Positions 2,108-54,330 of a stretch of DNA of 64,000 nt are shown here, piece by piece. The stretch comes from Patescibacteria group bacterium (lineage in GTDB: Bacteria > Patescibacteriota > Microgenomatia > UBA12405). The stretch covers positions 8,950 through 72,949 of the forward strand of contig JAHIPV010000009.1 in NCBI GenBank assembly GCA_018902845.1. Reading direction: 5' to 3'. Made by a program: the position numbers and the translations under genes. The stretch's first letter is position 1. Each line of letters opens with the position of its first letter. The notes under the pieces were generated by a model. It worked only from the letters and a program-made list of their open reading frames with translations, made no database searches and was not told the DNA's origin.

Positions 2108-3334
2108 GTGATGAAAAGGATTTTGATTTCTTGTACTTATTATGAACCAAATATTTCTGGAGTGACTGTATACGCCAGAATTTTGGCTGAAAAGATGGTT
2201 GGTGAAGGCTTTGACATAACCGTATTAAGTTCCAGATTTCAAAAAAACTTGGCAAAACAAAAAACAAAAAATGGAGTGAAAATAAAAAGATCTAGGGTAC
2301 TGTTTAGACTGAGCAAGGGTGTTTTTATGCCATTTTTCTGGCTGGATGCAATAAAAGAAGTTAAAAAAACGGATATTGTCAATTGTCATTTGCCACAAGT
2401 GGAATCTTTTATTTTGGCCATATTGGCAAAAATTTTTAAAAAAAGATTAATAGTAACGCATCATTGTGAATTTGGAATTGATGGGCTTTGGCACAATAAA
2501 ATAATCGGCTTAGTCACCTACCCTTTTCATTTTTTAACTTACTTATTAGCTGACAAAATCGTTTCTTATACAAAAGATTACGCTTATGTCTCAATTTTTT
2601 TGAGATTTTTTAAGAAAAAACTTATTTTTGTTTTACCACCGGCAGTGGTGGGAAAAGAAAATAAATTAAAAATCAAAGAGATCCTTCGGTCGCTAGAGCT
2701 TCCTTGGGATGACGGCGAGAGCGTCATTCTGAGCGGAAGCGAAGAATCCCAAATGAAATGCTTAACTCCCACGGGATCCCTCGACTTCGCTCGGGATGAC
2801 AGTGTCAAAATAATCGGATATGTGGGTAGAATTGGGTGGGAGAAAGGGCTAAATTTTTTGATTATGGCATGTAAAAAAATTAACGAAAAAAGAAAAGTCA
2901 AACTAGTATTGGTAGGGCCATATGAAAATGTGGCCGGAGATGGGAGTTATAAAAAATTAAGAGGATTAATCAAAAAAAATAAAGACTTGGTGGTTTTGCT
3001 TGGAGCAATAGACCATGAGGATTTGGCTAATTTTTATAAAACTTGTGATTGCTTGGTTTTGCCAAGCACTAATAATTTGGAAACTTTTGGGATTGTACAA
3101 ATTGAGGCGATGGTGTCGGGATGCGGTGTAGTGGCGTCTGATTTACCTGGGGTAAGAATGCCGGTTAAATTAACCGGAATGGGAAAAATTGCAAAAATTG
3201 GGGATAGCAATGATCTGGCAAAAAAAATAGAACAAGTTTTGGAGAGTAAGTACAGCAAAAAACAGATTAAAAAAGCTAGGGAGATTTTTAGTTCGGAAAG
3301 ATTTATTAAAGAATATAAAAAGATTTTCTGGTAA
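2108..3334 (+). CDS. Glycosyltransferase family 4 (GT-B fold). The real start is probably the ATG at 2111. Carries an in-frame repeat insertion at 2681-2803.
   Basis: N-terminal Glyco_trans_4-like region and C-terminal Glycos_transf_1 region with motif ETFGIVQIEAMVSGCGVV. The middle segment ELPWDDGESVILSGSEESQMKCLTPTGSLDFARDDS is a translated repeat element. Confidence 0.8.
   Translation: MMKRILISCTYYEPNISGVTVYARILAEKMVGEGFDITVLSSRFQKNLAKQKTKNGVKIKRSRVLFRLSKGVFMPFFWLDAIKEVKKTDIVNCHLPQVESFILAILAKIFKKRLIVTHHCEFGIDGLWHNKIIGLVTYPFHFLTYLLADKIVSYTKDYAYVSIFLRFFKKKLIFVLPPAVVGKENKLKIKEILRSLELPWDDGESVILSGSEESQMKCLTPTGSLDFARDDSVKIIGYVGRIGWEKGLNFLIMACKKINEKRKVKLVLVGPYENVAGDGSYKKLRGLIKKNKDLVVLLGAIDHEDLANFYKTCDCLVLPSTNNLETFGIVQIEAMVSGCGVVASDLPGVRMPVKLTGMGKIAKIGDSNDLAKKIEQVLESKYSKKQIKKAREIFSSERFIKEYKKIFW
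2681..2803. repeat. ~123-bp composite repeat block inserted in frame in the GT4 gene
   Basis: Contains TCCTTCGGTCGC, GTCATTCTGAGCGGAAGCGAAGAATCCC and GGGATCCCTCGACTTCGCTCGGGATGACAG. Confidence 0.85.
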
Positions 3335-3344
3335 AATTGAGTAT

Positions 3345-3551
3345 ATGTATGATTGGAGTACTGACACAACAAGGCTAATAAAGGATAAAGATGCGTGGGA
3401 GAAATGGAAATTAGAGCAAATGATTAATTTTGGTTTAAACGGCAAAAAACTCTCAAAATTAAAATTAAAAAAGTATTGGGATGAATTAGATATAGATCCT
3501 GATAAAAGAAATTATTTAAAGTTTTTGCTATGGGAAGATCCTAATTATTGA
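3345..3551 (+). CDS. Hypothetical small Trp-rich protein
   Basis: 68-aa ORF immediately downstream of the GT4 gene. No recognisable motif. Confidence 0.3.
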   Translation: MYDWSTDTTRLIKDKDAWEKWKLEQMINFGLNGKKLSKLKLKKYWDELDIDPDKRNYLKFLLWEDPNY

Positions 3552-3582
3552 CTTTTGTTAATACTGAGTATATGATATTAAT

Positions 3583-3822
3583 ATGTTGCAATTAATAACA
3601 ATAACACCAAATTGGCAATTTTATATTCCAGGAAATATTAGAAAACAAATAAAATTAAACAGACCAACAAAAGCTAAAATAAGTGTAAAGAATAAAAAAA
3701 TCGTTATTGAACCAATTAAAAGTAAAATATTGACTGGTGCCGGTATGTTTGCCGGCTCTAAGCCAAACAGAAAGATCGATGTTGATAATATCCGGGATTT
3801 TATAGATTATTCGCAATGGTGA
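3583..3822 (+). CDS. AbrB/SpoVT-family antitoxin (VapB-like)
   Basis: 79 aa with a swapped-hairpin-like N-terminus (NWQFYIPGNIRKQIKL). Overlaps the downstream PIN gene by 7 nt. Confidence 0.55.
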   Translation: MLQLITITPNWQFYIPGNIRKQIKLNRPTKAKISVKNKKIVIEPIKSKILTGAGMFAGSKPNRKIDVDNIRDFIDYSQW

Positions 3823-4235
3823 AAATAAAAAAAGTTTTTATTGATACAAATTTTTGGATTCGTTATTTTACTAAAGACAACGAAATTCAATATAAGGCAA
3901 CGGTTGATTTGGTTGAAAAAATTGAGTCTGGTAAGTTTCGTCCTTTTATTTCTGCCATTGTTTTTCTTGAAATTAACTTCGTTCTTTCTCAATTGTACGA
4001 TAAAAATTTAAAGCAAATAAATAAATGCTTTGATTTGATAATGTCATTAAGAAACCTTGTTATTGTAAATAAAACTGATTTTGAAAAAGCTTTAAAATGG
4101 CATAGGAATTTGAAAATTAAACTACCAGATTGCCTAATCGCATCTTGTCTTCCAGATAATTGTGTTTTAGTAAGTTGGGATAAAGATTTTAATAAAATAA
4201 AAGAGATTGATAGTAAAAAACCTAGCGAGTTTTAA
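3816..4235 (+). CDS. vapC: PIN-domain toxin (VapC-like)
   Basis: N-terminal FIDTNFWIRYF motif with acidic residues typical of a PIN domain. 139 aa, translationally coupled to the upstream antitoxin. Confidence 0.7.
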   Translation: MVKIKKVFIDTNFWIRYFTKDNEIQYKATVDLVEKIESGKFRPFISAIVFLEINFVLSQLYDKNLKQINKCFDLIMSLRNLVIVNKTDFEKALKWHRNLKIKLPDCLIASCLPDNCVLVSWDKDFNKIKEIDSKKPSEF

Positions 4236-5029: not shown

Positions 5030-6936
5030 TTTTTCTTAAAAATTAAAACTTTGGGGTGGTCGTAGACGGTGAAGGCTTCTTCGGATGTGTCGTCGCGGAT
5101 GTAAATACCGGGGTATAGGCATTGGCTATCAATAGTAAACCATTTATTTGTTTTTTCTTTGTAAGGAAAATTGGTGGGGCCGAAATAATAACATTTTTTT
5201 AAAAATGGCAGGTTTATCCCTGGGTAAGAATTAATTTCTATTAATTTTGTAAAACTTAATTTTTCATCAAAGAGGTTTTGGTAAAATTTTGATGTTTGGG
5301 GATATTTGTTTGGTACTGGCGGGATGGAACCCCAAAGACGATTTGATGACATGATCATATAATCGGCATTATTTATAATTGGACTTAATCTTTGCCATTT
5401 TTCTGGTGTGTCTGGATCGTAAAGCGATAGCATTTGACCACTGTAACTGCTGGCAGTTTGTTTTGGTAAGTTTAATGGAAGAGGATCGTCCCAATATTCA
5501 TTTGTAATTAAGGATTCAATGGGAATATTTTTGTAAATCCAGTTTGATGCCTGAACGCGGGAATGAGGGCGGGAATAGATAGATAGAAAAGAAATGCAAA
5601 ATATAAAATGGAAAATAAAAGTAGTAAAAATGAATTTTAAATTAGAGGTTGGCTTGATAGCGAGCAAACATATAAATGGGTAGATTGGTAAAAAATAACG
5701 CATAGTAGTGACAAATTGAGAGCCCTGAAAAAAGAAAAGAAGGATAATCCAAGCCAACAAGAGAAAAACAATAGGATTGTGATTTTTTAAGATTTTGAGT
5801 TTTGTTCCAAAATCAGTGGTTATAAGATTCCTCGACTTCGCTCGGAATGACACGATTGTTTTGAGAGTGAAACTGATAATTTTAAAAAGTGAAATGAAAA
5901 ATAGGATTGATAGAGGTAAACCAATGCCCCAGAAAACAAGATTTTTTAGGGGGAAAAGAATGGGAGTTTTACTTAGCCATTGAACGGCTGGTGGAAACCA
6001 AGCATCTGGATCATTAAACGACTGAAGTGTTTTTAAATTGTCAATAAACTGAGGGTTGGGTTTGATAAGGGAAACAAAAGCGTATGGCTGAACAAGACGA
6101 AAAACAAGAAAAGTAGTTAGCAAAAAGTAAGATCCGAGAAAAATTAACTTGATTAAACGAATGATATTAAAAAAGTTTTTGGTTTTAAAAAAATAAAACA
6201 AAAAGAATAAAGCAATAACTGGAGAAAAAAGAAGAGCAGAAATTTTAGATGCCATGGCAAGACCAAAAAAAATTGGCGAGAGAAGTAAACTCCAGCTCTG
6301 CTGGAGACCTCGAACAAGTCGAGAGATCCCTCGACTACGCTCGGGATGACAGTTTCTTTTTGTTAGCCAGTGAGATAATAGTGTAAAAGTGGCGAAAATA
6401 AAGAAGTTTAAGAAAGTGTCAACGGCAAAAAAATGAGAGAGCTGAATTGGAAAAATACAGGTTGCGTAGAAAAGGCTGGGAAGAAAATATAATAACGGCC
6501 AGGTGTTTTTTGACTTGGGTGAGGTTTTGTTGCGACTGTATAATGGTTGTTTCTTGAAAATTAACTTTGAAATAAGATACAAGGAAAAAATGTTTAGGGA
6601 ATCAAAAAAAGCTGAAAGTGCGCGACCCAGAAAGTGAATTTTACCGTAAGAATCGAGATTTAGTATGGTGGCTAAATATTTTGTCAAAAAAATAGGAAAG
6701 GTGCCATAAACAAAAAACTGATATTCTTTATAGTTGTATGGATTTAGCGGAGAGATATTAGTATTTAGGTATTGTGTAAAGGAAATCGGAAGTTTTATTC
6801 TTTCGGTTACCATGGTCAAAAATCTTTCGTCTGGGTGGAGATGCTGATCGTTGTCCCAATTAATACCGTAAAGACGAAGAGACAAGGCAAAGAGGAAGAT
6901 AAGGATTAAAATTATTTTGTTTTTATGATTTTTCAT
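5026..6936 (-). CDS. GT-C fold membrane glycosyltransferase (PMT/ArnT-like) with two in-frame repeat insertions
   Basis: 636 aa, polytopic, with an HPDERF loop motif after TM1. Repeat-derived segments are HPERSRGISRLVRGLQ (6309-6352) and SFRAKSRN (5827-5854). Confidence 0.55.
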   Translation of the reverse strand: MKNHKNKIILILIFLFALSLRLYGINWDNDQHLHPDERFLTMVTERIKLPISFTQYLNTNISPLNPYNYKEYQFFVYGTFPIFLTKYLATILNLDSYGKIHFLGRALSAFFDSLNIFSLYLISKLIFKKQPLYSRNKTSPKSKNTWPLLYFLPSLFYATCIFPIQLSHFFAVDTFLNFFIFATFTLLSHWLTKRNCHPERSRGISRLVRGLQQSWSLLLSPIFFGLAMASKISALLFSPVIALFFLFYFFKTKNFFNIIRLIKLIFLGSYFLLTTFLVFRLVQPYAFVSLIKPNPQFIDNLKTLQSFNDPDAWFPPAVQWLSKTPILFPLKNLVFWGIGLPLSILFFISLFKIISFTLKTIVSFRAKSRNLITTDFGTKLKILKNHNPIVFLLLAWIILLFFFQGSQFVTTMRYFLPIYPFICLLAIKPTSNLKFIFTTFIFHFIFCISFLSIYSRPHSRVQASNWIYKNIPIESLITNEYWDDPLPLNLPKQTASSYSGQMLSLYDPDTPEKWQRLSPIINNADYMIMSSNRLWGSIPPVPNKYPQTSKFYQNLFDEKLSFTKLIEINSYPGINLPFLKKCYYFGPTNFPYKEKTNKWFTIDSQCLYPGIYIRDDTSEEAFTVYDHPKVLIFKKK

Positions 6937-8660
6937 AAAATTAAGTCTTCTATTTCTTCTTTTGATAAATAATTTTGTTTTTTGTAAATTCTTATAACAG
7001 GATGATCAAATACGGAAAAGGTTTCTTCGGCATTTTCATCTGATAAAAGGAACGGAAAAACTGAAAACTGTTTTAATTTTTCAAATCCCAGTTTACCAGA
7101 AAAAAGAGTTTGGTAATATTTCTGAGAGTATGGAAAAAGGGATCCTTCTCCCGCCACGGCGGGATCAGGATGACGACGGTATTGGTTTTTGAAGATACGG
7201 CGGGATGGTATAAGTATGTAATCACTCTGATGAATCTGTTCTACTAACAGTTTTGGTGAATCAGGATCGCTGTCCAAATTGTAAAAATCAAAATTGTGTA
7301 CGTCTAACTGATGCTGATTAACCGGTACGTTTATAACATTGCCGGCTTCAGAAAGAATTTTTGTATGAGGCAAGAGGTTATTTTTAAGCCAATCAGAGGC
7401 AGTTATGCGAATATCTGGTTTTAAATAAATTGAAAAAAATATAATTCCGGGTAATATTGAAAAAATGATTAATATTTTTGATAAAAATTTGTATTTTTTG
7501 ATCTGTTGAAAAAAAACGATTGATAAAAAAGGAAAAACAAAAAAAATCGGAGACATGAAACGAGACCATTTGGTGTAAAGAAAAGAATTGTAAAAAAAAT
7601 AGACAAGAGCAGGAATGAGAACGACTAGCCAGTTAATTAATGTGTCATCCCGCTTAGCGGGACGTGGTGATCTCGTAGGAAATGTAAAAGATGTGGTTGT
7701 AACTCCGGCGGGATTGCCACGTCGTAAAACTCCTCGCAATGACAGAATTGCTCCAATTATTGCAAATAGCAATACAGGCGGGCCGACGGCGTAGGGGAAA
7801 ATTTTGGTAAATTGAAAAAGAATTGGTGTGGAGTTTAAAAACTGGTTAGTGTAGAACATTTTAGTTTTTCCCATAGCAACAGAGGTTTCATAATTTAAGG
7901 TTGATCTAAAATCAGGTCCGGCAATAAGGTTGAATGGAGAAAAAATTATGAAAAATAGAGTGCTATTGAGTAAAAGAAAAGAAGTGAGAAGAAGTAGGTA
8001 ATTTTTTTTATTTTTTTTAAAAAAAGCAAAAAAAATAGACAAAAGCATTGGACCAAGAAAAAAAAGAGAAGTGATTTTTGAAGCCAAGCCAATACCGGTG
8101 ATAATCGAGGATAAAAATATACTTACCAGAGATTGATTTTGATAAAAATTGAGAGCCAAAAATATGTTTATGGCGAAAACGAAAATAAGCAAGGATTCGG
8201 TGGTACCAAAATGAGCTAATTGTATTAAGGCCGGTGTAAAAATTAAAAATAAAAGCAATAAAACACTTTGTTTAAATGAAAAAAATAATTTTTTGGAAAT
8301 TAAATAAAAAATGAAAACTGAAATTGAAGAAAAAAGAGATGAATAAAACCTCAGCATCAAAACAGAGTTAATAAAATTATTTGGTAGTTTTAATGAATAA
8401 AGAGTGAAAAAAGCCAGATAGAGAGGAAATTGACCATAAGCAAAAAAATGAGGGTTTAAGTCCGTTATTTTTAATTTTGATATAGCAGTGGCCATATTGT
8501 TTTCATCCGGATGAAAAAAATAAGAATCCGCCCAATCAAGTTTATAAAAACGAGTGAGGATAGTAAGAAAAAAGAGAAAAAAGATTAAAAATGTTTTTTT
8601 TGAGAAAAACGCTTCGCTAGATTTTTGGGGCTGTTTTTTAAATAACATAGATAATAGCAA
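6933..8660 (-). CDS. GT-C fold membrane glycosyltransferase (paralog) with an in-frame repeat insertion
   Basis: 575 aa, polytopic, with an FHPDEN loop motif similar to the neighbouring paralog. The segment RRGNPAGVTTTSFTFPTRSPRPAKRDDT is encoded by repeat modules at 7643-7745. Confidence 0.55.
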   Translation of the reverse strand: MLLSMLFKKQPQKSSEAFFSKKTFLIFFLFFLTILTRFYKLDWADSYFFHPDENNMATAISKLKITDLNPHFFAYGQFPLYLAFFTLYSLKLPNNFINSVLMLRFYSSLFSSISVFIFYLISKKLFFSFKQSVLLLLFLIFTPALIQLAHFGTTESLLIFVFAINIFLALNFYQNQSLVSIFLSSIITGIGLASKITSLFFLGPMLLSIFFAFFKKNKKNYLLLLTSFLLLNSTLFFIIFSPFNLIAGPDFRSTLNYETSVAMGKTKMFYTNQFLNSTPILFQFTKIFPYAVGPPVLLFAIIGAILSLRGVLRRGNPAGVTTTSFTFPTRSPRPAKRDDTLINWLVVLIPALVYFFYNSFLYTKWSRFMSPIFFVFPFLSIVFFQQIKKYKFLSKILIIFSILPGIIFFSIYLKPDIRITASDWLKNNLLPHTKILSEAGNVINVPVNQHQLDVHNFDFYNLDSDPDSPKLLVEQIHQSDYILIPSRRIFKNQYRRHPDPAVAGEGSLFPYSQKYYQTLFSGKLGFEKLKQFSVFPFLLSDENAEETFSVFDHPVIRIYKKQNYLSKEEIEDLIL

Positions 8661-9573: not shown

Positions 9574-9574
9574 A

Positions 9575-10417: not shown

Positions 10418-10419
10418 AA

Positions 10420-11946: not shown

Positions 11947-12005
11947 ACTAATAATAGTTTTTTAGATATTTTAATCTTAGATTAATATTTTTTTTAATGC
12001 AAATG

Positions 12006-18700: not shown

Positions 18701-18715
18701 AAGACTGGACTGACT

Positions 18716-18752
18716 CCGACGGGATCCTTCGTTATACTCAGGATGACGATGA
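18716..18752. repeat. GC-rich repeat module (GGGATCCTTCG...CAGGATGACG type)
   Basis: Matches modules found at more than 30 sites in the window. Confidence 0.8.
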
Positions 18753-18777
18753 TATTGTTAAATGATAAAATTTTCAA

Positions 18778-19596
18778 ATGATTGATACCCATGCACATTT
18801 GACTGGAATGTTTTGCGACCTGCCTACCGGCAGGCAAGCTGGGAAGGGAGTGGTGGAAGAGGCGAAAATGGCAAGATTGTGGGCTATTGTGTTGGCGGCT
18901 AGTAATATAGAAGAATCCGTGGAAAATATTAAATTGGCTAAAAATTATGACGGGTTTCTGTTTGCTGCTGCCGGTATTCACCCTCAGCAAACTGATGTTG
19001 AAAATAAAGATTCTATTGATAAACAAATAGCTCATTTAGATGAGTTAATAGGCAAAAACAAGAAAAATATAGTGGCTGTTGGTGAGTGCGGACTAGATTA
19101 CTCCCCTGCTCCGGCAGGTGAAAAAGACAGAAGTAGGAGAGGTCAGGAAAAATTGTTTAGAAAACAAATTTGTTTGAGTATGAAATATAAATTGCCTTTA
19201 ATTATTCATGCCAGAAAAGCAATGGACCAAGTTATTGAAATTTTGAGTGAATATAAAAATTTAAAGGGAGTTTTTCATTGTTATGCCGGAGGGAAAAAAA
19301 GGATTAAAAAGGTGTTAGGTTTGGGAGAAGATTGGTATTTTGGAATTGACGGGAACTTGACTTATGATGATGGACTAGTGGAAGTGGTTAAAAAAATACC
19401 AAGAGACAGGTTAATTCTAGAAACGGATTCCCCTCTTTTGACGCCTGAACCTTTTAGAGGAAAGGAAAACAAACCGGCGTATGTTAAGTATGTATATAAA
19501 AAGGTAAGTGAAATATGGGGGGTGGAATTTAAAGAATGCGAGAAATTAATAGACGAGAATGCCAGAAAAATGTTTGGGATTAATCCGTCATCCTGA
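18778..19596 (+). CDS. tatD: TatD-family metal-dependent hydrolase/DNase
   Basis: N-terminal IDTHAHL and GECGLDY motifs. The stop codon lies inside a repeat module. Confidence 0.8.
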   Translation: MIDTHAHLTGMFCDLPTGRQAGKGVVEEAKMARLWAIVLAASNIEESVENIKLAKNYDGFLFAAAGIHPQQTDVENKDSIDKQIAHLDELIGKNKKNIVAVGECGLDYSPAPAGEKDRSRRGQEKLFRKQICLSMKYKLPLIIHARKAMDQVIEILSEYKNLKGVFHCYAGGKKRIKKVLGLGEDWYFGIDGNLTYDDGLVEVVKKIPRDRLILETDSPLLTPEPFRGKENKPAYVKYVYKKVSEIWGVEFKECEKLIDENARKMFGINPSS

Positions 19597-19676
19597 ATGA
19601 AATGAAGGATCCCGTTGGAGTATAACTAATCTCTTTGGGATTCTTCTCCCGCCAAAGGCGGGATCAGAATGACGAG
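19586..19676. repeat. Composite GC-rich repeat block
   Basis: Contains CGTCATCCTGA, GGATCCC and CCCGCCAAAGGCGGGATCAGAATGACG modules. Confidence 0.8.
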
Positions 19677-19939: not shown

Positions 19940-19991
19940 ATGATTTAAATTCTAAATTCTAATATCTAAATTCTAAACAAATTTCTAAAAT

Positions 19992-20975
19992 TTATTTTTC
20001 CGCTAGTTGGCGGAGTGGTAATCCCGACGAGATCGCCACGTCACTTCGTTCCTCGCGATGACAGGTAGAATTTTGCCAGATTTTGAATACATTGGAAAGG
20101 AGCATGGCAATAGTCATGGGGCCGACACCACCAGGAACAGGGGTGATAAAACTGCAGTTATCTGCAACTGATTTAAAATCGACGTCTCCGACTAATTTGG
20201 AAGTTTGGGGATCTTTGTTTGTACCAACATCAATAACTATAGAATTATTTTTGACATAATCGGCAGTTATGAAATTTGGTTTACCGACAGCCGAAATTAA
20301 AATATCTGCTTTTTGGCAAATTTGAATTAAATTCTTTGTATGAGAATGACAAAGGGTGCAGGTGCAATTTTCTGCGTTTAACAGAGCCAAGAGTGGCAAA
20401 CCAACCTCTAAACTTCTTCCAATAATTACCGCATTTTTACCTGATAAAGAAATTTTATAATTTTTTAGGAGTCTGATAATTCCTAATGCCGTAGCCGGGA
20501 TGATGGCGATAGGATCTTGCTGGAATAATAATCCGAGATTAGTGGAGGTCAGACCGTCAGCGTCTTTGTTTGGATTGATTGAATTTAGAATCTCTAATTT
20601 ATTTAGATATTTTGGTAAAGGAAGCTGGACCATAATGGCGGTAATAGAGGGATCTTGATTGAGTTTTTTAATAAGTTTTATGAGATTCGCTTCGCTAGAT
20701 TCTTCACATTCATTCAGAATGACGGGCTGATTGTCGGAATTGATTTGGTTTGAAAAATTATGAACTTTGGTATTTATGCCTATTTGTTTGGCATTTTTTT
20801 GTTTCATTTCAACATATTTTTTGGAAGCTGGGTCAGAGCCGACTAAAATTATGTCAAGTTTAATATTCGTTTGTCCCCCTGCGGGTGACTGCGCTGACGT
20901 TTGCTTTTTTTTAATATCAGTTTTAAGGGTTTCTAGGATTTTTTGAGATAGTTTTTGACCGTCTAGGATTTGCAT
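19992..20975 (-). CDS. folD: Bifunctional methylenetetrahydrofolate dehydrogenase/cyclohydrolase with in-frame repeat insertions
   Basis: MQILDGQKLSQKI N-terminus and FolD-like core. Repeat-encoded segments lie at 20874-20905 (SAQSPAGGQT), at 20688-20725, and in the C-terminal tail (19998-20068). Confidence 0.8.
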   Translation of the reverse strand: MQILDGQKLSQKILETLKTDIKKKQTSAQSPAGGQTNIKLDIILVGSDPASKKYVEMKQKNAKQIGINTKVHNFSNQINSDNQPVILNECEESSEANLIKLIKKLNQDPSITAIMVQLPLPKYLNKLEILNSINPNKDADGLTSTNLGLLFQQDPIAIIPATALGIIRLLKNYKISLSGKNAVIIGRSLEVGLPLLALLNAENCTCTLCHSHTKNLIQICQKADILISAVGKPNFITADYVKNNSIVIDVGTNKDPQTSKLVGDVDFKSVADNCSFITPVPGGVGPMTIAMLLSNVFKIWQNSTCHREERSDVAISSGLPLRQLAEK

Positions 20976-21011: not shown

Positions 21012-21170
21012 TTTGTCATTCCGACTCCTTCGACTCCGCTCAGGATAAATTCCATGGAGGAATCTCTGAACTTGTTTCAGAAATCCCGCTGTGGCGGGAT
21101 ACCTCAGACAAGCTGAGAGATCCCTCGACTTCGCTCGGGATGACAAGTGCTTCGCTGGCAATGACAAACA
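21012..21170. repeat. Dense composite repeat cluster (~160 bp). A near-identical ~115-bp copy is at 44463-44578.
   Basis: The string TTTGTCATTCCGAC...TTTCAGAAATCCCGC..GGCGGGATACCTCAGACAAGCTGAGAGATCC is shared between the two loci. Confidence 0.85.
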
Positions 21171-37990: not shown

Positions 37991-39540
37991 GGTGAATAGT
38001 TGACTGAAAAATCATAAAGAATGGGGGTGTTTTGGCCATCAATACTTTTTAAAAATGCCTTATATCTAAAATAGCGACCAATATTGGCACCTAAATAAAT
38101 CCCCTGCCCCTCTGAATCAGTATAAAGATCGTCGGAAAGATCAGTGCCGGCAGGACCATGATAAAGCCATGGACCATCTGCGTTTTCAGAGATAGCCGTT
38201 TGGAAACCGATCAAGGTATTTGGAAATGTTTGGCCAGAAAAACTGATTCTATTAAAAGCAGAAGATTGATTGGTATCCAAAACTGAAGAAATTAAGGTGC
38301 CTTCTGTAAAAAATCCTCCAACCCCGCCGGTTAAATCCATGGCATCAACATAAAAAATAAGAGTTGGGTCTGAATGATCCATTATTTTGGAAAAATATAT
38401 GGCTTCTAAATTATTTTCATAATCTTCCCCTATTTGTTCGTAATCTAAGCTGATTTCTGTCCAAGTTACAGGGGGTATAGTGATAGTCCTCTCGTCCCAT
38501 TGGCCATAAACAGCCGTAACATCTATTTCAATTTCATCTGGAGTGGGATTATAGGCATAAAAATGAAGATTGCGAAAACCGATGGTACAGATCTCATCAT
38601 AATTAAAAATTTTTACCCACGATCGCCATGAACCGGAACTGGGGGAATAAAGTTGGATTTTCATGGAATAACTTGATTCATTGTAAGTAAAATCGGCGGA
38701 GTTGGTGGATATAACACCATTAGAAAAAAATGTTAAAAATTTACACAAAAGCCATTCCCAAAAACCAAGTCCGCTACAATTGGTGCGCCAACCGTTTTGT
38801 AATTGGTCATCATAGATAAGAGATTCAGGTGAACCTCCCTGGCAACCTCCAAGAAGTTCTATTTCCCCGTTATTTATTGTGGGATCAGTGATTTTTACCA
38901 GATCCATTTGACCACCTTCGAAATCGGAAACCGTGCTTTGCTGCCAGGATAAATTATCGTAATAGCGAGTTAAATATTTACTTTGGGTAATTTGACTCGG
39001 ATGTAAACCTGTCCACGAACAGGTGGCTGCTATTTTTTTTGTTGACAAATCAAGGGTTCCGGAAGAATCAACAATGTCACCATTTTGATTGCGATAAACA
39101 GGACTAATGTCTATATAACGGGTAAAATTATCGACAAGCTCCCCGCTGGTAGTAGAGACAAGAGATAAAATTCCACCATCTTCATTAATAATGTAACGAC
39201 CGTTATTTAACAAATTCCAGTCAGCGTGTTGAATATTTTTTGTTTTTTCTAAATATTCAAGATTTAGAGCCGTGGCTTTGGTTTTTTCTTTACCAATCTC
39301 GGCAGTTTCTTGAGAGACAAAAAATAGTCTGGTGACGGCAAAAATAATTGTTGATAAAACTCCTATACATACAAGTATTTCTACTATTGAAAAAGCAAAT
39401 TGCTTGTCATTGCGAGGTAGTCTTTTAGTTCGTTTCAGAAATCCGCCTTTGGCGGATACTTCGCATTCGCGAGAGATCCCTCGACTTCGCTCGGGATGAC
39501 AGAATGGTTTGCTCGGGATGACACTAGTTTTATTTTTCAT
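37987..39540 (-). CDS. Large pilin-like protein whose leader region is encoded by repeat elements
   Basis: FAFSIVEILVCIGVL is a prepilin-like helix. The preceding ~45 aa (HPERSRGISRECEVSAKGGF...) are a translation of repeat modules at 39406-39525. Confidence 0.5.
   Translation of the reverse strand: MKNKTSVIPSKPFCHPERSRGISRECEVSAKGGFLKRTKRLPRNDKQFAFSIVEILVCIGVLSTIIFAVTRLFFVSQETAEIGKEKTKATALNLEYLEKTKNIQHADWNLLNNGRYIINEDGGILSLVSTTSGELVDNFTRYIDISPVYRNQNGDIVDSSGTLDLSTKKIAATCSWTGLHPSQITQSKYLTRYYDNLSWQQSTVSDFEGGQMDLVKITDPTINNGEIELLGGCQGGSPESLIYDDQLQNGWRTNCSGLGFWEWLLCKFLTFFSNGVISTNSADFTYNESSYSMKIQLYSPSSGSWRSWVKIFNYDEICTIGFRNLHFYAYNPTPDEIEIDVTAVYGQWDERTITIPPVTWTEISLDYEQIGEDYENNLEAIYFSKIMDHSDPTLIFYVDAMDLTGGVGGFFTEGTLISSVLDTNQSSAFNRISFSGQTFPNTLIGFQTAISENADGPWLYHGPAGTDLSDDLYTDSEGQGIYLGANIGRYFRYKAFLKSIDGQNTPILYDFSVNYSP
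39406..39525. repeat. Composite GC-rich repeat block inside the 5-prime end of a pilin-like gene
   Basis: Contains GTCATTGCGAGG, AAATCCGCCTTTGGCGGAT and GAGATCCCTCGACTTCGCTCGGGATGACAG modules. Confidence 0.85.
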
Positions 39541-40020: not shown

Positions 40021-40101
40021 CCGTCATCCTGAATTTAATTCAGGATCCTTTCGAGATCAAAACTTCCCTTGGGATCCTTCACTGTGTTCAGGATGACGTT
40101 G
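40021..40101. repeat. GC-rich repeat block
   Basis: CGTCATCCTGAATTTAATTCAGGATCC plus GGGATCCTTCAC..TTCAGGATGACG. Confidence 0.8.
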
Positions 40102-41362: not shown

Positions 41363-41391
41363 TTGACTAAGAATACGGATTGTTGTAGAAT
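41363..41391 (+). promoter_or_regulatory. Candidate promoter TTGACT-17-TAGAAT with a TTGTACAA palindrome, upstream of abiEi
   Basis: Read directly from the sequence. The AbiEi ATG at 41403 is about 12 nt from the -10 element. Confidence 0.4.
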
Positions 41392-41402
41392 TGTACAACA
41401 AA

Positions 41403-44462: not shown

Positions 44463-44578
44463 TTGTCATTCCGACCGAAGTGGAGGAATCCCTGAATTTA
44501 TTTCAGAAATCCCGCCATAGGCGGGATACCTCAGACAAGCTGAGAGATCCTTCGGCTACGCTCAGGATGACGGAGGCA
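44463..44578. repeat. Composite repeat element, second copy of the 21012-21170 family
   Basis: Near-identical string shared with 21012-21170. Confidence 0.85.
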
Positions 44579-44930
44579 GGTAATTTTTGATTTTTTCCAA
44601 CAGTTCAAGCGGATTTAAGTCTGCTTTTAATATAAATTCTTTGGCTCCGTTTTCTAGAGCCTCTTTTTTGGCATCTTGGCTCATTAGATTAGTATAAAGC
44701 AGGACGGTTGTATTTTTGTTTATTCCTTTTTTGATTTCTTTAAGAAGATTTAAGCCGTCAATTTTTGGAAGCATGATATCAAGCAAGATCAGATCAAACT
44801 TATCCTTTATTTTTTCTAAAGCATCTTGTCCGTCTAAAGACAAGTGAACTTGGTGCTGATCTTTTTGCAATTTGGTGGAATATATTTTGGAATTAAGCAT
44901 GTCGTCGTCGACGATAAGGAGTTTAGCCAT
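44562..44930 (-). CDS. Single-domain response regulator (REC only)
   Basis: LLIVDDD...LILLDIMLPKIDGLNLLKEIKK receiver motifs; 122 aa. Confidence 0.75.
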   Translation of the reverse strand: MAKLLIVDDDMLNSKIYSTKLQKDQHQVHLSLDGQDALEKIKDKFDLILLDIMLPKIDGLNLLKEIKKGINKNTTVLLYTNLMSQDAKKEALENGAKEFILKADLNPLELLEKIKNYLPPSS

Positions 44931-45111
44931 GAATTGTGGTGTTTTTTATTAAATTAATTAAATCCTGATTAGAATCATAGGCTTTTTGAAGTAGATTGGA
45001 GTTTTTGTCTGATTGTTTTTTGTCATCCAAAATAAGAGCCAAGCAATTTTTTATAATAGATAATTTTCCCAAAAAATCGTGAGAGTTTACTTTTATATTC
45101 ATGTTGTTTCT

Positions 45112-45177
45112 AAAATCCGCCCTTGGCGGATATCTCGCATTCGCGAGAGATCCCTCCGCTACGGTCGGGATGACAAT
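45112..45177. repeat. GC-rich repeat block
   Basis: AAATCCGCCCTTGGCGGAT plus GAGATCCCTCCGCTACGGTCGGGATGACA. Confidence 0.8.
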
Positions 45178-45179
45178 AA

Positions 45180-49820: not shown

Positions 49821-49839
49821 ATATTTAAAATTTAAAAAA

Positions 49840-50107
49840 CGCTTCGCTAGATCCTTCGATCGTAAAACTCACTCAGGATGACGAAATTTTGTCATTGCGA
49901 GGATCCGCTAGCTGGCGGAGACGTGGCAATCCCCGCCTGCAACGCTGTAGCAACTGCGGGCAGGCCGTTGGGATTTTGATCACGTTTTTTTACATTTCCG
50001 ACGGGATCACCACGTCACTTCGTTCCTCGTGATGACAGCGGCTTGTCATTGCTACGTCTACGGGCGACCGCAAGGGTCGCCCCTACAAAGGGTCGGCAAT
50101 GACAGCT
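49840..50107. repeat. Dense array of at least 8 concatenated GC-rich repeat modules (~270 bp) between iscU and iscS
   Basis: Contains GCTTCGCTAGATCCTTCG, CAGGATGACG, GTCATTGCGAGG, CCACGTCACTTCGTTCCTCGTGATGACAG, GGGCGACCGCAAGGGTCGCCCC and others. Confidence 0.85.
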
Positions 50108-51249
50108 TAAAAAGGGGAAAGCCGGCGGAGGTCTTTGATTATTTTTGGTAAAACTTTGATTAAATAATTAATTTCTTTTTTGGTAGTCCAACGACCAAAA
50201 CTGATTCTTATTGATCCGTGAGTTTGAGAAGGTTTCAGTCCACAAGCAAGAAGGACGTGAGAAGGTTTTAAATTATTTGAAGAACAGGCAGAACCGGTTG
50301 AAACAGCGATTCCCAGCTGATCAAGTTTTAACAAAATTGATTCGCCTTCAACGTTATCGAAACGAAAACTGGCAATGTTTGGGAGAGAGAATTTGAGATG
50401 GCCATTAAGATGAGAATTGGGAATTTTTTTGAGAATATTTTTTATAAGATGATGGCGGAGTTTGAACAATCTTTGGGATTCTGAAACAAGTTCAGAATGA
50501 CGAATGGTTGCTGTTTTGGCAAAGGCCGAAACAAGAGGAAGATTTACAGTTGAAGACCTTAAGGTATTTTCGTGACCGCCACCGTGTAAAAGTGGGGTAA
50601 TATTGGTTCCTTTTTTGATATAAAGCAGGGCAATTCCTTTGGGGCCATAAACTTTGTGAGATGAAGCTGTCAAAAGATCAATATTCATTTTTTTTACATT
50701 TATGGGAATTTTGCCAAAAGTCTGAGAGGCGTCGGTGTGAAAATATATATTAAGTTTGCAACAAATTTTTCCAATTTCTTCTATAGGCTCTATGGTTCCA
50801 ATTTCGTTATTGGCGTGCATGATAGAAACTAAAATTGTCTTTTTGGTGATAGATTTTTTAACATCACTAGGATTAACCCGACCAAATTTATCAACGGGAA
50901 TTTTGGTAATTTTGAATCCTTGAGTTTTTAGCCAATCGGCTGAGTTTAAAATACAGTCATGTTCGATAGAAGAAATGATGATGTGATTGCCTTTGTTTTT
51001 GTTGGCAAAAGCAATGCCCTTTAGAACAGTATTATTTGACTCGGTGGCCGAAGAAGTAAAAATTATCTCCGATGGGTCTGCTTTAATAAATTTGGCTATA
51101 TTTTTGCGATTTTTTTCTAAGATTTTTTTGGCTTTTTGACCAGATTGGTGCAAAGAAGAAGTGTTGGCAAAGTTGGAAAAATATGAAGAAAGGTGTTTTA
51201 TGATAATTGGATCAATTGGGGTGGTGGAAGCGTAATCTAAGTAAATCAT
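50107..51249 (-). CDS. iscS: Cysteine desulfurase (IscS/NifS family)
   Basis: MIYLDYASTTP N-terminus, the PLP-lysine region SSHKVYGPKG, and the active-site GSACSS. Confidence 0.85.
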   Translation of the reverse strand: MIYLDYASTTPIDPIIIKHLSSYFSNFANTSSLHQSGQKAKKILEKNRKNIAKFIKADPSEIIFTSSATESNNTVLKGIAFANKNKGNHIIISSIEHDCILNSADWLKTQGFKITKIPVDKFGRVNPSDVKKSITKKTILVSIMHANNEIGTIEPIEEIGKICCKLNIYFHTDASQTFGKIPINVKKMNIDLLTASSHKVYGPKGIALLYIKKGTNITPLLHGGGHENTLRSSTVNLPLVSAFAKTATIRHSELVSESQRLFKLRHHLIKNILKKIPNSHLNGHLKFSLPNIASFRFDNVEGESILLKLDQLGIAVSTGSACSSNNLKPSHVLLACGLKPSQTHGSIRISFGRWTTKKEINYLIKVLPKIIKDLRRLSPF

Positions 51250-51696: not shown

Positions 51697-53178
51697 TTAT
51701 TCTGAAAAAAGTTGGACGGTGTAGATAAAGATTTCTGTTTTAGGATCAAGATAACAGTCTGAGCGCAGACCCATTTTTTGAGAGCAAAGCTGGGAGAGAA
51801 ATTCTTTTTTTGTCCAGCCGGTTTCTGTGGCCACTTGGGGCAAAAAAGTACCGGTACAATTGACATACTTTAGATAAACTCCGTGTTTGCCCATTTTAAT
51901 CTGCTTAATAGAATTAATTTTTTTTAGAGGTGAGAGAATAGAAATTTCTATTTTTATATCTTTTAGCTCTTGTTTTGTTAACGGAGGAAAACGAGGATCA
52001 TGAAAAGCCGAAGCTATGGTCGTTTTGGCTATTGTAGGCAGGAGTGTTCGATTAGCGACAAAACTGCCTATACAGCCTCTTAGTTGGCCATGTTTTTTTA
52101 GAGTAATAAAGATTCCTCTTTTTTTGGAACGTAATAAATTCTTCGAATTTAAACGTTCCTTTGGGGTTTTCCCTGTTTTTGTATAAGTTTCCAGGACTTG
52201 GCGGGAGTAATTTAAAAGAAATTTTTGTTCTTGAGAGGAGAGTTCGTGGGATTTATGTTCCGATGGGATTGCCGCGTCGTTGCGGGCGACCGCAAGGGTC
52301 GCCCCTACAGAAGACTGACTACTGCTCTTGTAAAAAGCGATAGAGGCGTAGCCGACTACCCTGTTTCCGTCCCCTGTTATTTTTCCGGAATTAGTGAGAT
52401 GCAGTAATTTACTTTTATTTATTTTTAAATTCTTGGCTACCAGTAAAGCAACCTCTATAGGTTGGCTGGCACAGGCGAAAGTATCAACATTTGGATAAGT
52501 TTGTTTTAGTTGAGAGAGTGTGTTTACGAATCGTTTGTGTTTAAGAGTCAGAATTGCATCAGTGGTTTTTTTGTCTACAATTTGGGCGGTTTTTTGTTTA
52601 GGATAATGAGAAAGATCGGAGGAAATAATTAAGAGGGTATTGTTGTTCAAATTGTCTGAAATTTTTTGAGCTAGTAATTTAAGATCTTTTTGGCTGGCTT
52701 GGCCGATTAGGATGGGAATGATTTGGAAATTTTTTAATACTTCTTGCAAAAAAGGTAGTTGAACTTCCAAAGAATGTTCTTGTTGATGGGCTTGTTTATC
52801 AACAAAAATGTTTTTGTCTGTAAGCTTGGCAATAAAATTTTTGCTGATTTTGATTTTGCCTAGTGGCGTTTGCCAAAAATCACTGTCATCTATGGCAATT
52901 CCTCTGAAAAAAGCTGAATGACTAACACCTAGAAGAACAATGTGCTTAAAATTATAGTTTTCGATTTGACGAAAGGCATGAGCCGCCACTTGGCCGGAAT
53001 AATCATAGCCGGCGTGAGGGACTATAAGAATTTTGGGGGGCTTCCCCCTCCGGGTGACTGCGCCAAGGCTTGTGTTTTTGATATTAACTTTATTTAAAAA
53101 TTTTTGAATAGTGGAAGAAAGTTTTTTGGCCGAATTGGGATAAAACTGGCCGGCAACAACAGGCTGACGAATTAGCAT
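51697..53178 (-). CDS. AmmeMemoRadiSam system fusion: Memo-like protein B N-terminal domain plus AMMECR1 protein A C-terminal domain, with in-frame repeat insertions
   Basis: ILIVPHAGYDYSG is Memo-like. GCIGSF...DPRFPPLT is the AMMECR1 signature. The linker SSVGATLAVARNDAAIPS is encoded by the repeat at 52262-52320. The N-terminal SLGAVTRRGKPPK is encoded by the repeat at 53036-53070. Confidence 0.7.
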   Translation of the reverse strand: MLIRQPVVAGQFYPNSAKKLSSTIQKFLNKVNIKNTSLGAVTRRGKPPKILIVPHAGYDYSGQVAAHAFRQIENYNFKHIVLLGVSHSAFFRGIAIDDSDFWQTPLGKIKISKNFIAKLTDKNIFVDKQAHQQEHSLEVQLPFLQEVLKNFQIIPILIGQASQKDLKLLAQKISDNLNNNTLLIISSDLSHYPKQKTAQIVDKKTTDAILTLKHKRFVNTLSQLKQTYPNVDTFACASQPIEVALLVAKNLKINKSKLLHLTNSGKITGDGNRVVGYASIAFYKSSSQSSVGATLAVARNDAAIPSEHKSHELSSQEQKFLLNYSRQVLETYTKTGKTPKERLNSKNLLRSKKRGIFITLKKHGQLRGCIGSFVANRTLLPTIAKTTIASAFHDPRFPPLTKQELKDIKIEISILSPLKKINSIKQIKMGKHGVYLKYVNCTGTFLPQVATETGWTKKEFLSQLCSQKMGLRSDCYLDPKTEIFIYTVQLFSE

Positions 53179-53215
53179 ATGATAATAGTATAGTTGAATT
53201 CTGCAAAGCAGAATA

Positions 53216-53260
53216 TCTCGAACAAGTCGAGAGATCCCTCCGCTTCGGTCGGGATGACAA
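53216..53260. repeat. GC-rich repeat module in the divergent promoter region of the AmmeMemoRadiSam genes
   Basis: CTCGAACAAGTCGAGAGATCCCTCCGCTTCGGTCGGGATGACAAT; compare 6309-6352. Confidence 0.85.
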
Positions 53261-53280
53261 TAATATCTGTATTAAAAAAA

Positions 53281-54330
53281 ATGAAAAAAGCAAAGACATT
53301 GTACAAAAAATTAGATAAGAATACGGTGCAGTGCAGGGCTTGCAATTGGTATTGCAAGATTAAAGAAGGAAATGTGGGGATATGTGGAGTAAGGCAAAAC
53401 AATAGTGGAGAGTTGTGTTTGTTGGTGGATGGAAAAATAATTAGCTTAGCGGTAGATCCGATTGAAAAAAAGCCTTTGTTTCATTTTTTGCCGGCAAGTA
53501 AAACTTTATCTTTTGGAACTTTGGGGTGTAATTTTGGTTGCGCTTTTTGCCAGAATTGGCAACAATCGCAAGGAATAAAGGGGAAATTATGGTTGCTTTT
53601 AAATTATTCAGAGGTCAGGAGATCCCTCGACTTCGCTCGGGATGACAAGACTCCTAAAGAGATTGTAGAAAAAGCCGAGAAATTGGGGTGTGAGTCAATT
53701 GCTTATACCTACAACGAGCCAACGATTTTTGTTGAATATGCTTATGAAACGATGAAGCTGGCAAAAAAGGCGGGTATAAAAAATGTATGGGTGTCTAATG
53801 GATTCATGTCAGATGAGAGTTTTGAGCTAATAAAAGATTTGATTGACGGCATTAATATTGATTTAAAAAGTATAAATAGTGACTTTTATAGAAAAATTTG
53901 TAAAGGAAAATTAGAACCGGTTTTGAAAAATATTAAGAAATTTTATAAGGCTGGAATTTGGATAGAGTTGACTACTATGATAATTGCCGGCGAAAACGAC
54001 TCCCCTGCTGAGTTAAAAAAAATTGCTGAGTTTATTGCTAATCTTTCTTGCGACATTCCTTGGCACGTAACCGCTTTTCATCCTGATTATAAAATGATGG
54101 ACAAAGAAGCTACTAGCTTGGAAAAATTGGAAGAGGCATGGCAAATTGGTAAAAAATCTGGCTTAAAGTATATTTATACCGGCAATGTTTGGGGTGGAAA
54201 AAATTCAACATATTGTGTGGAATGTGGAAATTTGCTAATAGATAGGGGGGATTATGGATCAGGAAAAGTTTTGGGGTTGGCAGATGGAAAATGTGAAGAG
54301 TGTGGCCAGAAAATTAGTGGAGCGTGGTAG
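53281..54330 (+). CDS. AmmeMemoRadiSam system radical SAM enzyme, with an in-frame repeat insertion. The ATG at 53281 is preferred over the TTG at 53194.
   Basis: GTLGCNFGCAFCQNW is a radical-SAM Cys motif. The segment EVRRSLDFARDDK is encoded by the repeat at 53611-53650. The upstream extension from 53194 only reads through a repeat. Confidence 0.75.
   Translation: MKKAKTLYKKLDKNTVQCRACNWYCKIKEGNVGICGVRQNNSGELCLLVDGKIISLAVDPIEKKPLFHFLPASKTLSFGTLGCNFGCAFCQNWQQSQGIKGKLWLLLNYSEVRRSLDFARDDKTPKEIVEKAEKLGCESIAYTYNEPTIFVEYAYETMKLAKKAGIKNVWVSNGFMSDESFELIKDLIDGINIDLKSINSDFYRKICKGKLEPVLKNIKKFYKAGIWIELTTMIIAGENDSPAELKKIAEFIANLSCDIPWHVTAFHPDYKMMDKEATSLEKLEEAWQIGKKSGLKYIYTGNVWGGKNSTYCVECGNLLIDRGDYGSGKVLGLADGKCEECGQKISGAW
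53611..53650. repeat. 39-bp repeat element, in frame in the radical SAM gene
   Basis: See 32912-32950. Confidence 0.85.

Follow-up and report, generated by a model that had tools for sequence, protein, structure and literature searches.

Palindromic elements of the CGTC-tagged REP superfamily are probably carried in frame by conserved genes of a Patescibacterium

Repetitive extragenic palindromic elements (REPs) of the CGTC-tagged superfamily have a terminal CGTC (often TGTC or CCTC), stems of 8–9 bp that almost always start with complementary AT, loops of 4–5 nt, and 3-nt tails with the consensus CCA (PMC3733652). They form inverted dimers, have no dedicated transposase, and include intragenic copies encoding 8–30 aa (PMC3733652). 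Di Nocera, De Gregorio and Rocco (2013, BMC Genomics 14:522, PMC3733652) reported CGTC repeats from 5 phyla, predominantly from Alphaproteobacteria, and the superfamily also contains Neisseria dRS3. The genome with the largest number of intragenic copies is that of R. conorii; these copies correspond to two Rickettsia palindromic elements (RPEs), RPE-4 (assigned to CGTC-4) and RPE-6 (CGTC-1) (PMC3733652). Here we examine palindromic repeats in a 64,000-nt stretch of DNA, called the window, from contig JAHIPV010000009.1 of a groundwater metagenome-assembled genome (MAG) of the Patescibacteria, or candidate phyla radiation (CPR). An earlier note made from the sequence had placed in-frame repeat modules in at least 12 genes of this window and had compared them with RPEs. 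The modules most probably belong, as REP-type palindromic elements, to the CGTC-tagged superfamily, with copies being gained, lost and remodelled and selection keeping the in-frame survivors.

Repeat finding recovered families at every position where the earlier note had placed a repeat. The pattern GTCATYSYGA-N6-24-RGSRATC has 14 exact matches, against 0.00 expected (100 shuffles). Scanning for hairpins that start and end with AT behind a GTCAT head gave 45 sites, ~40 of them convincing. The units have 54% G+C against 35% for the genome, which is also the value across the window. The basic unit, ~29 nt long, has an unpaired tag, nine-position arms around a loop of 4 nt, and a tail of 3 nt that is rich in C, as in these two examples:

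CGTC / ATTCTGAGC / GGGA / GCGAAGAAT / CCC
TGTC / ATCCCGAGC / GAAG / TCGAGGGAT / CTC

The tag is TGTC at 25, CGTC at 19 and AGTC at 1 of the 45 sites, and the commonest tails are CCC (18), CTC (11) and CTA (4). AT stands at both stem ends in all 45 sites, as the scan demanded; in 14/14 aligned units the outer two arm pairs are A-T and T-A. A tandem G·A/A·G step occupies arm positions 6–7, and units of the 22-nt class (nine-position arms, 4-nt loop) often leave the innermost pair open. Two units (40023, 50501) have perfect 8–9 bp stems. Among 14 units of equal length, compensatory changes were seen at three stem pairs and 90% of cells pair, a score equalled by 0/500 shuffles. Unit length ranges from 27 to 41 nt, with some of ~50 nt. 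One variant carries a second small palindrome in the loop, e.g. TCCCGCC..GGCGGGA or TCACCCGCAGGGGGA, and another reads TGTC-ATTGCGAGG...GACGTGGCAAT. The units occur singly, nested (19–21 nt separating the outer 5-bp stems), as small hairpins alone, as chains, and as inverted pairs with outward tags and spacer hairpins (2678–2753, 19586–19675, 24552–24637, 30116–30204, 40022–40098, 44463–44579 and 39406–39522). A self-splicing intron, an intein and a known RNA family were considered and rejected as the identity of the units, which are 27–50 nt long and match no RNA family in Rfam (gathering score, also E<=5).

The window units are like CGTC-tagged REPs in the C/TGTC tag, the AT-first stem, the inverted dimers and the intragenic copies, and less clearly so in the arms of ~9 positions, the 4-nt loop and the 3-nt tail. 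They differ in the CCC/CTC tail, the tandem G·A step, the frequent nesting or chaining of hairpins, and the Patescibacterium host. Their peptides CHPERSRGI, SFRAKSRNL, SLDFARDD and RHSELVSES resemble the tabulated intragenic CGTC peptides CHSRESGNP, SFPRKRES, DSRFRGND, VIPAKAGI and RHSELVSGS (Sulfurovum CGTC-2) (PMC3733652), and RHSELVSES and RHSELVSGS are near-identical. The Rickettsia parallel was therefore apt, since architecture and peptides match the superfamily that contains RPE-4 and RPE-6 (PMC3733652). RPEs are likewise in-frame palindromic repeats in conserved functional genes, encoding hydrophilic peptides at tolerated positions, some N- or C-terminal. Their families are described in Rickettsia, whereas a 26-nt core of the present units occurs in at least 12 phyla. 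The link to RPE-4 and RPE-6 is suggested by their published CGTC assignment and the peptide resemblance; RPE-1 is described only as a longer palindromic insertion. GTAG-tagged REPs and REPINs (paired REPs), with their Y1/HUH REP-associated tyrosine transposase (RAYT), are alike in their short tagged hairpins, frequent inverted pairs able to fold into one larger hairpin, strand-specific single-strand substrates and, in some cases, donation of stop codons. The main tag here is C/TGTC, not GTAG, and only one minor module (GTAGGGGCGACCCTTGCGGTCGCCC) is GTAG-headed. No RAYT, IS200-like or Y1_Tnp-type gene was found among the window ORFs (open reading frames) scanned, and none recurs beside the motif in 120 loci of other genomes. 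A classical MITE (miniature inverted-repeat transposable element) is defined by its terminal inverted repeats and by target-site duplications of fixed length, and derives from an insertion sequence. The composites described here end in inverted units, GTCAT...ATGAC, and a flanking direct repeat was found only at a 30-nt insert in folD. A study of Coxiella burnetii describes MITEs as non-autonomous small repeats inside coding sequences of a reduced genome (PMC5896051), which is a likeness, although the window has no evident parent insertion sequence. The element class and the intragenic phenomenon are therefore already known, and it is the density in a CPR lineage that is unusual. Affected genes number 12/~62 in the window, which looks much higher than in the CGTC REP genomes of PMC3733652.

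21/40 repeat intervals overlap verified coding sequence, in 12 genes. These are the ten genes listed in the earlier note plus a cysteine desulfurase and a response regulator. All listed segments lie inside ORFs that are intact in the window. Pfam supports the GT4 glycosyltransferase, PMT_2 GT-C, FolD, POR/KorA, class I methyltransferase, Memo+AMMECR1, radical SAM and TatD assignments. One host protein has its nearest named homologs in Candidatus Shapirobacteria. At least 5 of six frames are used to read the units, which run either with or against the host gene. Close orthologs (75–83% identical) and distant homologs lack the segments in folD, GT-C gene 1, GT-C gene 2 (7705–7755), Memo, GT4 and the methyltransferase. 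These alignments support the segments as lineage-specific additions, not ancestral parts of the proteins.

The earlier note had further held that module lengths preserve the reading frame. This is so for the net differences between orthologs, but most of the intervals it listed are not divisible by 3. Where DNA was measured, every intragenic net difference is a multiple of 3 (30, 45, 48, 84, 51 and 21 nt). Intergenic differences from relatives are 67, 7 and 22 nt, which are not, and also one of 33 nt. The intragenic figures are the expected product of selection on intact genes. Elements were found in interdomain linkers (GT4, korA, Memo-AMMECR1), in low-confidence loops of structure models, in a prepilin leader and at gene ends.

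The elements in folD, tatD and korA are these:

20874..20903, minus strand: in folD (19992–20975, minus strand), 30-nt insert GCAAACGTCAGCGCAGTCACCCGCAGGGGG with a small TCACCCGCAGGGGGA hairpin, encoding QTSAQSPAGG
20683..20750, minus strand: in folD, unit CGTCATTCTGAATGAATGTGAAGAATCTAGCGAAGCG plus flank, encoding ..INSDNQPVILNECEESSEA
19945..20068, minus strand: at the 3' end of folD, ~123-nt block of unit TGTCATCGCGAGGAACGAAGTGACGTGGCGATC plus a CTCCGCC..GGCGGAG hairpin
19586..19612, plus strand: at the end of tatD (18778–19596, plus strand), unit CGTCATCCTGAATGAAATGAAGGATCC, giving the last codons and the TGA stop (..PSS, stop)
23919..23961, minus strand: in korA (22817–24535, minus strand), small hairpin CAGTCATCCGCAGGGGG of the type in the folD 30-nt insert, encoding ..AKAQSSAGGRLT

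The relative at locus L005 (FolD P0003, 81% identical) has an exact 30-nt gap at 20874..20903, and a CAAACG direct repeat flanks the insert. At 20683..20750 a net 45 nt (15 aa) containing PVILNECEESSEA is missing from P0003/L005 and from PDB FolD proteins; L007 has a variant of this unit with compensatory stem changes. The 3' block supplies a C-terminal tail, TCHREERSDVAISSGLPLRQLAEK followed by the stop (+24 residues), and is missing in L005, where folD ends WQNN and stop. In L006 and L007 (92–95% identical) a 1-nt difference puts the block in another frame, giving the tail NLSSRGTK and stop. PDB FolD proteins are without the repeat-derived segments. In the AlphaFold model of FolD the predicted local distance difference test score (pLDDT) is <50 over all three of them (residues 29–34, 77–92 and 306–327), and the only other stretches this low are residues 1–3 and the loop 143–158. 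The predicted FolD junction peptide is ..NQPVILNECEESSEANL... The tatD-end unit is kept at 25/27 positions in L005. The korA element lies in the POR / POR_N linker (Pfam domains end at residue 172 and resume at 220).

Further units lie in three glycosyltransferase genes:

2678–2714, 2720–2753 and 2760–2803: in the GT4 gene (2108–3334, plus strand), three adjacent units found by repeat finding and by the scan
5802..5878, minus strand: in GT-C gene 1 (5026–6936, minus strand), unit TGTCATTCCGAGCGAAGTCGAGGAATC plus flanks, encoding ..IVSFRAKSRNLITTDFG..
6296..6353, minus strand: in GT-C gene 1, unit TGTCATCCCGAGCGTAGTCGAGGGATC plus a CTCGA..TCGAG hairpin, encoding CHPERSRGISRLVRGLQ
7139..7176, minus strand: in GT-C gene 2 (6933–8660, minus strand), nested unit CGTCATCCTGA (TCCCGCCGTGGCGGGA) GAAGGATCC, encoding RHPDPAVAGEGS
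7643..7755: in GT-C gene 2, inverted pair TGTCATCCCGCTTAGCGGGACGTGG.. and ..CCACGTCGTAAAACTCCTCGCAATGACA

The GT4 units encode EILRSLELPWDD..SVILSGSEESQ..CLTPTGSLDFARDDS in the linker between two Rossmann domains, the Pfam domains ending at residue 177 and resuming at 230. Nearly all 150 homologs align as two stretches that omit ~residues 195–230, and the insert adds 32 aa relative to P0358 (57% identical; protein alignment), with the predicted junction peptide ..SLDFARDDSVK... GT-C gene 1 is without a Pfam match; its homologs are annotated as glycosyltransferase family 39. In its ortholog at L129 (83% identical protein) a net 84 nt (77+7) is missing at 5802..5878 and a 48-nt insert at 6296..6353, where the empty site reads ..AGTCATCC / ATGGAG. 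There is pairing between the CTCCAG that was inserted and a neighbouring host CTGGAG. Two more in-frame extras of GT-C gene 1 relative to its closest ortholog, 6496–6534 (39 nt) and 6133–6150 (18 nt), have no recognisable unit. In GT-C gene 2, L129 also has a unit at 7139..7176, with a different palindromic inner hairpin (GTCCGAGTTATCGGAC, RHPESELSDEGS), and lacks 51 nt (7705–7755), a near-identical unit standing at another, intergenic L129 site.

The remaining intragenic units are these:

32901..32953, minus strand: in the methyltransferase gene (32585–33835, plus strand), ~50-nt unit TGTCATTCCGACCGAAGTGGAGGAATC plus CTCCTGACCTCTGAA, antisense to the gene, encoding LFPNSEVRRFLHFGRNDK
33572..33659, minus strand: in the methyltransferase gene, nested unit CGTCATCCTGATCCGCCAGTTGGCGGAGAAGGATCC plus 2.9 copies of a 21-nt tandem repeat on the tag side, encoding GILLRQLADQDDGVKRQGDGVKRQGDGV
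39406..39522: in a pilin-like gene (37987–39540, minus strand), composite of 117 nt or 39 codons with GTCAT...ATGAC ends
44463..44579: at a response regulator gene (44562–44930, minus strand), composite of five hairpins with inverted tagged units at its ends
50476..50502, minus strand: in the cysteine desulfurase gene (50107–51249, minus strand), unit CGTCATTCTGAACTTGTTTCAGAATCC, encoding RHSELVSES
52262..52320, minus strand: in the Memo-AMMECR1 gene (51697–53178, minus strand), GTAG-headed hairpin GTAGGGGCGACCCTTGCGGTCGCCC plus a partial ..ACGACGCGGCAATCCC unit
53035..53077, minus strand: in the Memo-AMMECR1 gene near the Memo N-terminus, small hairpin TCACCCGGAGGGGGA, encoding NTSLGAVTRRGKPP
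53596..53654, minus strand: in the radical SAM gene (53194–54330, plus strand), ~50-nt unit TGTCATCCCGAGCGAAGTCGAGGGATC plus CTCCTGACCTCTGAA, antisense to the gene, encoding LLNYSEVRRSLDFARDDKTP

The first methyltransferase unit is within a ~30-aa insert missing from all homologs, and P0266 (74% identical) has another element peptide, EILKQVQDDG, at the same loop. The region of the second is ~38 aa longer than in distant homologs. Its 21-nt repeat begins with the tag end of the unit, and P0264 (98% identical) has one copy fewer (2 vs 3). The methyltransferase model is too poor to place the first insert (N-terminal half at pLDDT <50); the second (310–360) and a window-specific stretch (210–231) are of low confidence in an otherwise folded core. 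The ORF also has a 52-residue N-terminal extension (32585–32740) without counterpart in homologs <90% identical, which begin MRDYRLQ, and the true start may be internal.

The pilin-like composite stands in the leader, between MKNKTS and KQFA / FSIVEILV. Neighbouring pilin paralogs have leaders of 8–11 aa, and the pilin-like leader minus the 39 residues is 10 aa. No protein without the leader insert was found among the cluster members >=90% identical. An intergenic copy of the composite (45106–45175) is 87% identical over 70 nt. The right end of the response regulator composite (44562–44579) gives that protein its ..PSS and stop codon; this stop and that of tatD both come from CCGTCATCCTGA. Set among a type IV pilus cluster (PilM, PilO-like, PilC/T2SSF, PilB/T2SSE, pilins) are two genes for PIN-domain proteins and one for a nucleotidyltransferase toxin of AbiEii type, the latter with a partner ORF upstream of it (3816–4235, 36447–36830 and 41391–42834). 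Their annotation suggests toxin-antitoxin modules.

In the cysteine desulfurase the relative at L132 has CGTCATTCTGAGCATAGCGAAGAATCC at the position of the unit, a different inner sequence in the same 27 nt. The Memo-AMMECR1 linker element lies between Pfam domains that end at residue 280 and resume at 323; contigs L131 and L132 of the relative (Ga0180007) break exactly there, and L131 ends in different units. The element at 53035..53077 adds a net 21 nt relative to L131 and 10 aa relative to human MEMO1 (3bcz). At the radical SAM loop L131 has another hairpin, ACCCCGCCAAGGCGGGGT, and is 21 nt shorter. Against PDB the radical SAM protein gave one weak match, with the insert outside the aligned part. 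The Memo-AMMECR1 and radical SAM genes are divergent and make up an AmmeMemoRadiSam system (51697–54330), the fusion being named AmmeMemoRadiSam system protein B at NCBI.

Other units are intergenic:

49835..50104: cluster between NifU and IscS, including a 61-nt palindromic composite (50044–50104)
21014..21166: composite between map and folD, missing in L005
139–181, 18722–18748, 19637–19675, 24552–24657, 29079–29119 and 30061–30204: further copies
40022–40098, 45106–45179, 53208–53266, 55133–55182 and 61117–61153: further copies

Relative to L132 the NifU-IscS spacer shows gaps of 67, 33 and 7 nt, not all multiples of 3. The 50044–50104 composite lies in the 67-nt stretch missing in the relative, with another unit beside it. 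The repeat at 53208–53266 is upstream of the likely radical SAM start (MKKAKTLYKK, ~53281) and hence intergenic. Units also make up most of the ORFs or N-terminal extensions 20979–21299, 18505–19035 and 53194–53280. The ORFs 20979–21299 (106 aa, in the spacer between folD and map, the methionine aminopeptidase ORF 21173–21949) and 18505–19035, and the radical SAM TTG start, are probably spurious.

The claim of active insertion holds as far as presence and absence differ between relatives ~20% diverged (DNA). Relatives 95–100% identical share their copies, and the sole differences among them are the 1-nt frame change and the change in tandem-tail copy number. The earlier note had also proposed a target preference, since the methyltransferase and the radical SAM gene carry one element in the same flanking context. 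Comparison with orthologs does not support this. The two copies are 87% identical over 53 nt, the CAGAGGTCAGGAGAT stretch included, and in orthologs of both genes CAGAGGTCAGGAGAT is missing together with the hairpin. GT-C gene 1 has a third copy with a related version of this context (family D5). CAGAGGTCAGGAGAT is therefore part of the ~50-nt unit and not a target. It resembles the CTGAA...TTCAG spacer hairpin of the composites.

In relatives the corresponding position is often occupied by a different unit: this is so for the radical SAM loop, the spot upstream of that gene, the Memo-AMMECR1 linker, one methyltransferase loop, and the units of GT-C gene 2, the cysteine desulfurase and the NifU-IscS spacer. 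In these pairs the tag and outer stem are identical and the inner part differs at many positions, each version being palindromic; the swapped inner hairpins match subfamilies elsewhere in the genome. Elements are 73–81% identical between orthologous copies, close to the 78–87% of the coding flanks. Such pairs point to hairpin-preserving evolution or to replacement from other copies. The tag end (..GRATGAC plus 10–20 nt) is often tandemly duplicated (33599–33659, 24632–24657 and 39496–39523; also at L034, L052, L053, L078, L088 and L112).

The tag is on the minus strand in 29/40 units, and plus units are almost all partners in inverted pairs. Units in plus-strand genes (methyltransferase, radical SAM, GT4) are still minus oriented, so orientation follows the chromosome strand, not transcription. 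IS200/IS605 elements move by a single-strand, replication-linked process, and the same has been proposed for REPs. A strand-biased orientation would fit such a process. GC skew of the plus strand is >0 in 29/32 2-kb bins, with a maximum of +0.36. About 3/4 of the window ORFs are on the minus strand, and ORFs >=100 aa, mostly on that strand, cover ~89% of the window. One paper reports an unusual strand composition disparity for a Microgenomates genome (PMC7143001).

Beyond the window, species representatives from at least 12 phyla, three CPR lineages included, carry the 26-nt core GATYCYTCSRCTWCGSTCRGRATGAC, which was found in at least 120 stretches. The chance expectation for the strict core is ~0.07 in 596 Gb (our own calculation from information content). 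Among the listed matches are Verrucomicrobiota, Acidobacteriota, Bacteroidota, Bacillota, Chloroflexota, Planctomycetota and Pseudomonadota. Of the 133 matches listed from other phyla, 89 have A and 25 have G directly after ..GATGAC, corresponding to the tags TGTC and CGTC. An inverted partner lies within 120 nt of 45/127 matches listed from other phyla, and the tag end is tandemly duplicated in 11/127 (~9%) of the matches listed, vs 4/127 (~3%) in an upstream control. In low-G+C genomes only 1/21 of the matches listed is deep inside a long ORF, so the intragenic habit seems particular to this gene-dense genome. As to vectors, no phage record matched, and matches to Sinorhizobium megaplasmids were weak (E=0.2). 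In the literature we found no paper linking REPs with CPR bacteria and none carrying the core sequences. In a Kiritimatiellae MAG (L012, ~4690–5150) a small ORF for a GIY-YIG nuclease lies between inverted units, one of them directly upstream of its ATG. Similar ORFs are present at L110, L115 and L058 (3–4 loci in all), and none in the window. A gene that mobilises the units, or is associated with them, may lie behind this, though the lead is too slight to be built on.

We picture the process as follows. Over the time in which species diverge, copies would be gained, lost and remodelled. In a genome as gene-dense as this one (89% of the window in ORFs) many new copies would land in genes, and selection would remove frame-breaking copies and those that bring in a stop or spoil the fold. 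Survivors would add whole codons in linkers, surface loops, the cleavable prepilin leader and gene ends. They would presumably be translated as extra, mostly hydrophilic segments, some donating a stop codon or a C-terminal tail. The inserts would be nearly neutral. As the mobilising activity our best guess is a process coupled to replication that works on the hairpin in single-stranded DNA, together with gene conversion between copies.

Several observations weigh against this picture. No transposase or other mobilising gene was found among the scanned window ORFs, and no recurrent gene family lies beside the motif in 120 loci of other genomes (3,376 ORFs, all-against-all). Insertion borders are untidy, and a possible target duplication was found in only one clean case, CAAACG at the folD 30-nt insert. 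The published lengths of stem and loop are matched only when the tandem G·A step is included in the stem, and the tail consensus is CCC/CTC rather than CCA. The units show no avoidance of stops (3.8 open frames of 6 vs 3.9 in shuffles and 3.5 in random genomic 32-mers). Simple insertion does not explain the cysteine desulfurase unit, 9 codons that align without gap or length change to A. fulgidus IscS2 (4r5f), nor evidently the korA element, whose region is within 6 aa of the net length of 6n2n and which may be an insertion or a replacement. Finally, we infer the translation of the inserts.

Many copies may instead have arisen by local template switching or gene conversion that overwrote an existing hairpin or patch, with slippage at the tag end. 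We regard this as a tenable, if tentative, account. It would explain why orthologous units keep tag and outer stem while their palindromic inner hairpins differ and match other subfamilies, why the cysteine desulfurase unit replaces 9 codons at constant length, and why the CTCCAG inserted in GT-C gene 1 pairs with host CTGGAG. The excess of tag-end duplications over the upstream control agrees with it, as does the one that varies between 98%-identical strains. However, clean gains at element-free sites (30 nt in folD, 48 and 84 nt in GT-C gene 1) need true insertion, and conversion cannot explain the first arrival in a gene. Conversion thus complements insertion of REP-type elements rather than replacing it.

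Homing to a preferred target sequence is unlikely. Relatives do carry other units at the radical SAM, methyltransferase, Memo linker and upstream-of-radical-SAM spots, the empty site of GT-C gene 1 contains GTCATCC, which equals the element head, and one unit sits inside another right after TGTCATTG. But the CAGAGGTCAGGAGAT flank is owned by the element, and the recovered empty sites have no evident common motif except A/T richness in a genome of 65% A+T. Selection for tolerant positions accounts equally well for the reuse of a loop, as does replacement of an old copy. It is also a long shot that a universal activity of the host, working at the replication fork on hairpins in single-stranded DNA, maintains and remodels the core by cassette-like conversion and without a selfish transposase. 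Such a reading starts from a core that is nearly invariant over at least 12 phyla, has no transposase of its own, stands in one chromosomal orientation here, and keeps tag and outer stem where inner hairpins are swapped at orthologous sites.

Excision of the elements from transcript or protein, in the manner of introns or inteins, is very improbable. Intervening sequences are reported to be abundant in rRNA and tRNA genes of Patescibacteria. The units, however, are far below the size of group I/II introns or inteins, and are without an Rfam match. Preservation of the frame would be unneeded if they were removed, yet the DNA-measured intragenic differences are all multiples of 3 and stop-free; two genes also receive their stop codon, and folD its tail, from units.

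That the segments are ancestral protein parts with a chance resemblance, e.g. low-complexity loops, can be given hardly any credence. The small or absent length change of korA and the cysteine desulfurase against PDB homologs fits it, as do the GT-C gene 2 unit at 7139–7176 and the tatD-end unit, which relatives share. It is already refuted at most sites by the orthologs and distant homologs without the segments, and the likeness is at the DNA level, in different frames, on both strands and in intergenic copies. Artefacts of metagenome assembly or binning are the least credible explanation, for although repeats disturb assembly, as the breaks of L131 and L132 at the Memo-AMMECR1 linker element illustrate, the ORFs are intact, an identical FolD is present on 10 contigs (NCBI, ENA, JGI; among them a 99-kb contig of GCA_018895715.1), and five further host proteins recur unchanged in several MAGs or sources (NCBI, ENA, JGI, Logan assemblies).

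Elsewhere in the window, 9700–12220 contains tandem or low-complexity repeats with periods of 12, 24, 36 and 231 nt in three successive minus-strand ORFs. They are not related to the hairpin units. The ORF 9575–10471 probably codes for a surface protein, in which the repeats give TPTN linkers and a Cys-rich module that is duplicated. No tRNA genes were found in the window.

Patescibacteria are regarded as genomically streamlined. About 1 in 5 of the window genes has REP-derived residues, a REP-derived tail or a REP-derived stop codon. If this density holds genome-wide, the proteome may contain more REP-derived residues than the genomes tabulated in the 2013 survey. For annotation, the units generate spurious small ORFs and N-terminal extensions, and MAG contigs break at them. 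In Rickettsia, the activity and stability of a guanylate kinase containing an RPE were reportedly compared with and without the insert in an earlier study. How CGTC-type REPs spread without a transposase is a question that has stood since 2013, and MAGs with filled, empty and swapped sites are a natural data set for it. Should a host process at the replication fork be at work, a large part of the proteome in gene-dense CPR genomes would be under continual rewriting at its surface loops, tails and stop codons.

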